DNA from: Candidatus Aenigmatarchaeota archaeon
Lineage (GTDB): Archaea; Aenigmatarchaeota; Aenigmatarchaeia; GW2011-AR5
Direction of reading: 5' to 3'
Length of the DNA stretch: 64,000 bases
Assembly: GCA_016198685.1 (NCBI GenBank)
Contig: JACQID010000006.1
Coordinates: 32,001-96,000, forward strand
This document shows positions 14,073 through 41,197 of the stretch, in pieces (the stretch's first letter is position 1; each line of letters opens with the position of its first letter). Both the position numbers and the translations under genes were made by a program. Below the pieces are notes generated by a model. The model did not search any database, was not told the DNA's origin, and worked only from the letters and a program-made list of their open reading frames with translations.

Positions 14073-14160
14073 CAAATTGCAATAATAATGGAGCATTTGC
14101 CTGCAATTTGTTATATGTAAATAACATTATAGAATGCTCCAAAATAAACGTTATTTACTA
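14070..14160. repeat. Two inverted copies of a 44-46 bp quasi-palindromic element
   Basis: Copy 1, 14070-14113: TAGCAAATTGCA-N20-TGCAATTTGTTA. Copy 2, 14115-14160, reverse complement: TAGTAAATAACG-N22-TGTTATTTACAT. Both share the core TGGAGCATT. Confidence 0.75.
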
Positions 14161-38691: not shown

Positions 38692-38895
38692 ATGGTTATG
38701 TCCAACAAGCACGTCAAGACGATAAACGGCAAGAAATATTACTACGAGTCCGTTCGTAAAGGCAGGAAAGTCACATCGCGCTACATCGGCCCGGCAGAAG
38801 AAACAAAAGAGCAGATCAGTGAAAGTGTAGTTGCAGATAAAAAGCCTATCAAGGAAGAAGACCTCATTACGCCGGATGATCATTATATCGGCTGA
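38692..38895 (+). CDS. Small protein with basic N-terminus, possibly nucleic-acid binding
   Basis: KTINGKKYYYESVRKGRKVTSRYIG followed by an acidic tail. TTTATATAA box upstream. Confidence 0.65.
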   Translation: MVMSNKHVKTINGKKYYYESVRKGRKVTSRYIGPAEETKEQISESVVADKKPIKEEDLITPDDHYIG

Positions 38896-39002
38896 CTCTG
38901 CCTGTGGCAACCCATGAGGGATTAGCCAGCGAGATAAATTAAAGCGTTTTCCGATAATTTACGATCAAGAGAAAATAAAGAAAATAAAAATTGAAGAACT
39001 TA

Positions 39003-39048
39003 TAGTAAATAACATTTATTTTGCAACATTTTATAATGCAATTTACTA
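39003..39048 (+). repeat. Third copy of the 46-bp quasi-palindromic element
   Basis: TAGTAAATAACA-TTTATTTTGCAACATTTTATAA-TGCAATTTACTA. 38/46 ungapped identity (hand count) to the reverse complement of 14115-14160. Confidence 0.75.
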
Positions 39049-39225
39049 TTAGATGTGTCTTGCCTTCAAAGTGCCTTCTTTCCTGTACTTGGCTCTTTCA
39101 ACCGCCTTGTCTATCAGGTGCATGACTTCCTTGTTCAGGATTTCAAGGGCATCCGATCCCATTCGCAGCTTCTTCTTCGCCGCGTATTCTTTCACTTTAC
39201 TTCTTACGACAAGCATTTCTGCCAT
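39049..39225 (-). CDS. Histone-fold protein (58 aa, Bd0055-like short histone); absent from the ORF track
   Basis: Hand translation: MAEMLVVRSKVKEYAAKKKLRMGSDALEILNKEVMHLIDKAVERAKYRKEGTLKARHI*. GGTGA SD and a TTATATAAA box upstream. Confidence 0.88.
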   Translation of the reverse strand: MAEMLVVRSKVKEYAAKKKLRMGSDALEILNKEVMHLIDKAVERAKYRKEGTLKARHI

Positions 39226-40519: not shown

Positions 40520-41197
40520 ATGCCTGTTTTTGAACTCAAAAGCTGCGGGAAGTGCGGAGGCGACACCTACATAGAAGAGGATCGTAACAGCATTTATAGG
40601 ACATGCCTGCATTGTGGTACTCTGGATGATATCATAGTCAAGTCAGAATCAGGGTATCGTGCAAGATTTCCTACATCGAGCGTGGATGACGACGAAACTG
40701 AGAAATACGTTTCTCCCAAAGACTCGTTGCATGGGCTGAAAAAATACATGGACGTTCTAAGCATGCTTGAAAAAGGCAAGGCATGCAGGGACGATATTCT
40801 TGCAGTTCTAGGCGGGGAGGGCAGTGACAAAGGAAAAGGCACATTTTGGGCCATGATGAAGCAAGGCTATGTGGCTCAAGAAAAGCACGGCAGGCGGGGA
40901 ACGAACTACACAATCACAAAGCAAGGCTTGCATGCCGTTCAGTTTTATAGGGAATGGAAGGACAAAGGCGCTGATATGAATATTCTGCTTTCCGCACTCT
41001 GCGTTATGAGTCTTGTGAGTGAAGAAGGCTATTCGTCTCTGAATGAAAGGGGACGGCTAATCGCATATAAGATGGAAACAAGGAAAATGATAGCCAGAGG
41101 AACGCTGGTTGATCAAGCGCAGAAAGAACTTGAGAAGTACCGTCCGCTTGTGCCGATAGCGATGCATGAATACGGACCCATATATCGTTTGCGATGA
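40520..41197 (+). CDS. Hypothetical protein with N-terminal Zn ribbon and possible winged-helix region
   Basis: CGKCGG..CLHCG, then VLSML..GYV..YTITKQG. Confidence 0.6.
   Translation: MPVFELKSCGKCGGDTYIEEDRNSIYRTCLHCGTLDDIIVKSESGYRARFPTSSVDDDETEKYVSPKDSLHGLKKYMDVLSMLEKGKACRDDILAVLGGEGSDKGKGTFWAMMKQGYVAQEKHGRRGTNYTITKQGLHAVQFYREWKDKGADMNILLSALCVMSLVSEEGYSSLNERGRLIAYKMETRKMIARGTLVDQAQKELEKYRPLVPIAMHEYGPIYRLR

Follow-up and report, generated by a model that had tools for sequence, protein, structure and literature searches.

A basic histone of the alpha3-truncated superfamily with an apparently rewired L2/alpha3 corner in an Aenigmatarchaeota-type archaeon

Only recently have face-to-face (FtF) histones come to be seen as a second major class of chromatin protein in archaea; to our knowledge, only two of them, HTkC and HLp, have been characterised. 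In the 64,000-nucleotide stretch of archaeal DNA analysed here (hereafter, the window), an earlier note had picked out a 58-aa ORF as an unannotated, Bd0055-like histone in which the arginine-aspartate (RD) clamp, otherwise near-universal in the histone fold, is replaced by E..H. An ORF of this length, beginning with ATG, does occupy exactly 39049-39225 on the minus strand (stop codon included). What kind of histone does it encode, and what has become of the clamp? The genome to which the window belongs measures 935 kb and is 94% complete. Archaeal PolB, NAC and SecD are encoded near the ORF, and the nearest homologues of the histone carry the name Aenigm(at)archaeota. The organism is a small DPANN archaeon of the Aenigmatarchaeota type.

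A phmmer search of PDB sequences with the 58-aa protein returned four chains: HTkC (9f2c, E 4e-6), HLp (9qt0, 6e-5) and the Bd0055/HBb chains 8fvx (1.4e-4) and 8cmp (1.6e-4), HTkC (9F2C) being the best sequence match among solved structures. A profile made from 42 homologues matched HLp, HTkC and HBb at E 1e-18 to 1e-20, and reached nucleosomal histones (HMfA, HMk, NF-YB) more weakly. The AF2 model built on the homologue alignment (pLDDT 89.3) has helices at residues 8-17 and 24-47 only; its last 11 residues carry no DSSP helix and the chain ends six residues past the L2 threonine. Foldseek superposed this model on HLp, HBb and HTkC at TM 0.80-0.91 and rmsd 1.0-1.8 A, followed by ordinary histones at TM 0.5-0.6. 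The alpha3-truncated superfamily, as defined by Schwab et al. (2024, PMC11390915), comprises histone folds whose alpha2 is shortened and whose alpha3 retains only 3-4 residues. Taken together, the PDB matches, the profile, the AF2 model and the Foldseek results indicate that the window protein is a histone of this superfamily. The histone fold and truncated alpha3 proposed in the earlier note are therefore borne out by the model, within the superfamily that includes Bd0055/HBb. Its view of the protein as non-nucleosomal holds too, since PF00808 gave no match up to E 10 and the protein lacks the full-length alpha3 that forms a four-helix-bundle interface in nucleosomal histones.

Four histone-fold genes were found in this 0.93-Mb genome: two nucleosomal histones, one canonical FtF paralogue and the window gene. 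The nucleosomal histones (L003:1492-1686:- and L004:1492-1710:+, G000 contig 1) are 64 and 72 aa long, match PF00808 at 50 and 39 bits, and both carry the canonical R.T....D. Beside the second of them (L004) is a gene that, judging its sequence by eye, encodes a RadA-like recombinase. The FtF paralogue (G000 contig 6, L002:1489-1659:+; 56 aa) belongs to the same superfamily as the window histone and has R at the tetramerisation position. However, it is only 38% identical to the window histone, retains the canonical R..N.R.T....D (…RAKANDRKTVRGSDL) and has a net charge of +2, compared with +7 for the window histone, which, at a pI of 10.0, is the most basic for its size among the histones of the genome.

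FtF histones form a closed tetramer in which a conserved Arg, located where alpha2 ends in one dimer, contacts the terminal carboxylate of the other dimer. Extending the C-terminus should disrupt this contact, and the HTkC variant R45A is a dimer that behaves like HBb (bioRxiv 10.64898/2025.12.06.692711). The equivalents of the tetramerisation Arg are R45 in HTkC, R49 in HLp and R41 in H. volcanii. Bacterial dimers lack both the FtF Arg (HMM 48) and the FtF Asn (HMM 52) (PMC11390915), carry an RKTxxxxD motif and form a sequence cluster exclusive to bacteria. R44 of the window histone is the counterpart of HTkC R45, a position occupied by Ser in Bd0055; of the 120 single-domain homologues listed (from ~3850 family members), 117 have Arg there. 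The window histone ends at T52+6 and HTkC at T53+6, whereas Bd0055 is six residues longer; a C-terminal tail was absent from 114 of 119 D- or H-type homologues among those listed of the ~3850. Orthologues in other genera of the family show the complete FtF motif, R44..N48.R50.T52....D57. In the window histone itself, the FtF Asn that precedes the L2 Thr by four positions (HMM N52, a front inter-dimer contact) is missing, R48 standing in its place, and the RxTxxxxD motif reads E50-x-T52-xxxx-H57, with T retained and R and D replaced. Since HTkC, a proven tetramer, has E49 there, Asn at HMM 52 is typical but not obligatory. R44, the tail-less C-terminus and the canonical FtF motif in orthologues argue for filing the window histone as FtF-type, not as a Bd0055-type dimer, the tetramer itself being predicted.

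The likeness to Bd0055/HBb of Bdellovibrio bacteriovorus (PDB 8FVX, 8CMP, 9EZZ; PMC10627809, PMC11317129) is nevertheless genuine as far as the superfamily goes (TM 0.85-0.90). Its N-terminus, MAEVLVVTSKVKK, which the earlier note had given correctly (PDB chain 8fvx_A starts with it and aligns at the E value given above), is near-identical to that of the window histone. However, Bd0055 is bacterial and a dimer, with Ser at the tetramerisation-Arg position, a six-residue C-terminal tail and a canonical RKTxxxxD where the window histone reads EGTxxxxH. The specific label 'Bd0055-like' did not survive the archaeal host, the best PDB match to HTkC, and the retention of R44 and of the exact FtF C-terminal end; where the note had left a choice between a bacterial-dimer and a face-to-face type, the latter suits the protein better. 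We also considered a Bd0055-like bacterial dimer acquired from bacteria, which was rejected given the archaeal genome, the presence of R44 and the canonical FtF motifs in orthologues.

The best structural match was HLp of Leptospira perolatii (PDB 9QT0-2; PMC12701072), at TM 0.88-0.91 and rmsd 1.1 A. Its R49 corresponds to R44 of the window histone, and its full R..N.R.T....D interface and clamp motif is common to the window orthologues in other genera. It differs from the window histone in being bacterial, in having an N-terminal extension, and in its canonical RD clamp, R55-D62, and N53-R55' contact, where the window histone has E50-H57 and R48/E50. The inter-dimer contacts of HLp are N53-R55', S52-T61' and R49-F63' (PMC12701072), which by alignment map to R48-E50', Y47-R56' and R44-I58' of the window histone. 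Since the interface residues N53 and R55 of HLp are changed in the window histone (2/3), its tetramerisation could be weakened.

The protein might therefore be a dimer-only, DNA-bending histone similar to Bd0055/HBb, in which loss of N48 and R50 broke the tetramer, so that DNA is bent and not wrapped, as with HTkC R45A. The changes N48->R and R50->E do strike residues that make inter-dimer contacts in HLp and remove two of the three conserved residues of the FtF front interface; in addition, the protein is roughly as far in sequence from HBb as from HTkC and HLp, and the HTkC paper proposes that losing a single residue of the interface can convert an FtF histone to DNA bending of the HBb kind. 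However, the experimentally critical Arg (HTkC R45) is kept as R44, together with its exact C-terminal partner end; HTkC has neither the N (E49) nor the D, yet is a tetramer; and the changes at 48 and 50 are charge-complementary in both of the derived states described below. We regard loss of the tetramer as unlikely, although it retains some weight, and favour an FtF-type tetramer.

The nearest guide to the altered motif is HTkC (TK1040, Thermococcus kodakarensis, PDB 9F2C/9T30; PMC11390915). It too is archaeal and coexists with two nucleosomal histones and, although only ~35% identical to the window histone (59 versus 58 aa), it shares the MAEML..SKVKE N-terminus, the truncated alpha3, the tetramerisation Arg (R45, i.e., R44) and a C-terminus one residue past His. 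Its DNA contacts K7/S8/K9/K11/R22/T53 correspond to R8/S9/K10/K12/R21/T52 of the window histone, and its R57-H58 to R56-H57, i.e., the D of RxTxxxxD has become His preceded by Arg (the HTkC C-terminus reads …GRKTLYARHV). In HTkC, His in place of Asp lets R51 swing out to the DNA, and E49-R57-H58 salt bridges hold L2 and alpha3 instead (bioRxiv 10.64898/2025.12.06.692711). Ungapped alignments to HTkC and Bd0055 put E50 of the window histone at the clamp R and H57 at the clamp D, as the earlier note had it. HTkC, however, keeps the motif R51 (freed for DNA) and K52, whereas the window histone has E50 and G51, so that two DNA-binding L2 residues of HTkC are lost. Furthermore, the acidic partner in HTkC is E49, where the window histone has R48; the acid seems to have moved from position 48 to 50, with acid and base swapped relative to HTkC (E49, R51).

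We quantified these residues in two sets of homologues, 120 from an unbiased profile search (of ~3850 family members) and 199 pooled single-domain sequences. H57 was present in 18 of the 120 listed of ~3850, 16 of which have R56, and most H-type homologues carry an acidic residue at 47 or 48 (the HTkC E49 position). The states of positions 50/57 among the 199 pooled homologues were R50/D57 in 154, non-R50/H57 in 40, K50/D57 in 3 and R50/H57 in 1; H57 was thus accompanied by loss of R50 in 40 of 41 cases. E50 occurred in this set only with H57 and in only four close clusters, i.e., the window histone, a 90%-identity relative, and two clusters at 72% and 69% identity (P0187, P0189). All four read Y47-[RK]48-K49-E50-G-T…R56-H57, with no acid at 47 or 48. 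Many further homologues, of 117-123 aa (e.g., P0017, P0026, P0040, P0067-P0103), are tandem doublets of the alpha3-truncated histone domain, with two matched stretches each and the top family-profile scores, some of them pre-labelled PF00808 or PF09123 (DUF1931); an H-type doublet, P0053, reads …VKTLKGRHV in its first half.

As to the covariation of E and H, which the earlier note had proposed to check, the counts link loss of R50 strongly with H57, and E50 itself is confined to four clusters. Since an independent-pairs test of positions 50 and 57 yielded only two pairs on well-supported branches (p ~0.5, underpowered), we give the co-occurrence as counts and not as proven coevolution; the best tree requires 10 H57 changes, and this 52-column tree is weak. 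Other H-type homologues have the non-complementary 48/50 pairs E/V, E/M and S/V, so a direct 48-50' contact is no general rule. In the alignments, then, the histidine half of the motif is a common variant, found in HTkC and in the 18 of 120 listed homologues and explained structurally, whereas E at the Arg position is a rare, genus-level variant; E..H as a whole is only in part a common variant of a characterised class. A literature search found nothing specific on Aenigmarchaeota alpha3 histones, and the preprint 'Histone diversity in the archaeal domain' makes no mention of DPANN, Aenigm or FtF.

A histone match was detected in 99 of 201 genomes of the class and in all 22 sampled genomes of the window's family, many of which carry the canonical FtF paralogue together with the window-type gene. 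In the orthologue tree, the R48/E50/H57 genus and the two genera with D48/K50/H57 are sister groups (support 95/90), and the five-row clade they make up branches from within the N/R/D and S/R/D orthologues. Read most economically, the tree gives a derived series, N48/R50/D57 -> D48/K50/H57 -> R48/E50/H57. Charge complementarity between 48 and 50 is kept in both derived states (D/K, R/E), and the window clade additionally pairs Y47 with R56, which fits a tetramer interface that is retained but rewired and is the basis of the mechanism proposed here. As read from the residue states and the tree, the change is a minor, lineage-specific rearrangement that affects both the L2/alpha3 clamp and the front tetramer contact and is conserved at the genus level.

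We consider that the window gene probably encodes a small and highly basic, alpha3-truncated chromatin protein of FtF type, a DNA-wrapping toroidal tetramer with a rewired L2/alpha3 corner. By homology to HTkC and HLp, a pair of histone-fold dimers would form a closed toroidal tetramer, secured by contacts between R44 on one dimer and the C-terminal carboxylate of I58 on the other. DNA would be wrapped round the ring through R8, S9, K10 and K12 at the N-terminus of alpha1, R21 in L1 and T52 in L2, the residues corresponding to the DNA contacts of HTkC. Within L2 (Y47-R48-K49-E50-G51-T52), E50 may serve as a new negative partner of R56 and H57, which together with I58 make up alpha3 and the C-terminus; the result would be an RD clamp of reversed polarity, equivalent to the HTkC E49-R57-H58 bridges in shifted form. 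Across the front interface between dimers, R48-E50' may take the place of the N-R' contact. If so, the fold and the tetramer would be kept, while L2 would lose two DNA-facing positive charges (R, K -> E, G).

A stronger form of this proposal holds that Y47-R48-K49-E50/R56-H57 forms a polarity-reversed interface, with R48-E50' for N-R' and E50-H57 for R-D, that insulates the paralogues from each other and/or responds to pH. If true, the window histone could be limited to self-assembly and kept apart from the canonical FtF paralogue, so that the cell would have two FtF chromatin systems insulated from each other; since the clamp would now depend on a histidine, a pH response is conceivable, and L2 geometry, tetramer stability or DNA binding could then respond to pH. 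Against insulation, other genera hold two paralogues with canonical motifs side by side, and we think this stronger form quite doubtful.

The probable FtF-type chromatin protein is also to be considered in its genomic setting. Ahead of the ORF, on the minus strand, lie the Shine-Dalgarno-like GGTGAT (39237-39232), 6 nt from the ATG, and the archaeal TATA-box-like TTATATAA (39268-39261), ~40 nt upstream of it, the two kinds of signal that the earlier note had mentioned. Both fall within the 81-bp spacer behind the gene for a TctA-family membrane protein; with a TATA-like box inside this spacer, the histone gene probably has its own promoter. On the 3' side, oligo-T tracts at 38969-38990 (minus strand) likely represent an archaeal transcription stop. 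A scan for bacterial-type terminators found none, although sigma-70 and other bacterial models are not meaningful for an archaeon, and since the RNA fold of the 3' hairpin was no better than that of shuffles (z -0.71), the hairpin is not called a structured terminator. At 15 orthologous loci from other genomes, the MAE/MAD start is conserved, SD-like GGTG/GAGG or GAGGT motifs occur at the same distance from the ATG, and an A/T-rich box occurs at a similar upstream distance (TTATATAA recurs unchanged in L006 and L007, the loci from the same genus); almost all of the orthologous loci have T-rich tracts behind the stop codon.

The order PolB, orf67, histone (convergent), TctA-family gene, NAC recurs in many genera of the family. 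PolB lies ~400 bp from the window histone and within 1.5 kb of it in 11 loci of the family, but orf67 and the TctA-family gene are more constant neighbours; PolB is absent from the flank in the two same-genus genomes, in G143, in genus g5 and outside the family, where the histone is present. The earlier note had placed the gene beside the replication locus, and this is true of its position in the window, as part of a convergent, family-level synteny that breaks down within the genus. The nearness of PolB and the PolB/orf67/histone/TctA synteny in those 11 loci could suggest that the protein is a histone-fold factor with a dedicated role alongside the nearby replication genes (PolB, inactive DP1), e.g., an origin- or replisome-associated DNA-binding subunit. 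However, the histone gene is convergent with PolB and has promoter-like signals of its own, and we see no evidence for a replication-specific role; moreover, it is kept where PolB no longer flanks it, including in other orders, it has no domain or partner feature indicating replication, and its relatives HTkC and HLp are general chromatin proteins. We therefore consider a dedicated replication factor highly improbable.

Two neighbouring ORFs are recorded here in their own right. The orf67 (38692-38895, plus strand), convergent to the histone gene and its most constant neighbour across the family, encodes a 67-aa protein whose N-terminus is basic (…KTINGKKYYYESVRKGRKV…YIG) and whose tail is acidic. 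It had no Pfam, NCBIfam or PDB match, and in the ESM Atlas it falls in an Aenigmatarchaeota cluster, 21% of whose members have DUF6788. At 40520-41197 (plus strand), a 225-aa protein with a zinc-ribbon-like CxxC…CxxC N-terminus overlaps the 5' end of the opposite-strand TctA-family gene by 47 bp; it had no family match above threshold and was weakly conserved in same-genus genomes (41%, first 58 aa).

To return to the FtF-type histone gene itself, comparison with a same-genus genome (G179) gave a dN/dS of 0.067 (18 synonymous and 7 non-synonymous differences). Considering this ratio together with the conserved start, SD motif, upstream box and 3' T tracts, 39049-39225 is a real gene under strong purifying selection. 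One might suppose that the ORF arose by chance, or that it is a pseudogene copied from the canonical FtF paralogue and now in decay, its odd motif resulting from relaxed selection. This reading draws on its shortness, the lack of a Pfam or NCBIfam match and the alteration of three conserved motif residues, but is effectively refuted by the dN/dS, the retention of Y-[RK]-K-E-G-T...R-H in four clusters down to 69% identity, the conserved start, SD and promoter-like box, the confident fold, and the presence of an orthologue in every one of the 22 family genomes sampled.

Pfam and NCBIfam scans of the histone at E up to 10 returned noise only (BRCT 0.13, MtrF 0.11), which is why it looks unannotated. 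The earlier note's description is apt in that neither database recognises the protein, but gene callers do call the gene and it is public as 'hypothetical protein [Candidatus Aenigmarchaeota]'; its 90%-identity relative was likewise deposited as 'hypothetical protein'. In their current form, Pfam and NCBIfam models overlook such 58-residue histones.

The stop codon of the histone gene is followed immediately, within the 3' UTR, by a 46-bp palindromic element, TAGTAAAT…ATTTACTA (39003-39048), which is separate from the histone proper. The same-genus loci L006 and L007 lack the element at this position, their stop codon running straight into GTTCTTCAATTTTT. Three copies were found in the genome, at 39003-39048 and 14115-14160 of the window and at 253901-253946 of G000 contig 1 (L037), compared with 0 for the reversed control pattern; the two window copies are identical at 38 of 46 positions. 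TAA stands on both flanks of the element at 39003-39048, and ATAA flanks the 14-kb copy. The arrangement resembles the insertion of a MITE-like element whose TAA target duplication left the stop codon intact.

The prevailing view of prokaryotic histones is unaltered by this locus. Within one archaeal family, however, the orthologues appear to form a natural series, N/R/D -> D/K/H -> R/E/H, in which the clamp would have been lost and then rebuilt with opposite polarity, with the gene remaining under strong purifying selection. For FtF biochemistry, these natural mutants may be useful for probing the function of the RD clamp and of the front tetramer contact.
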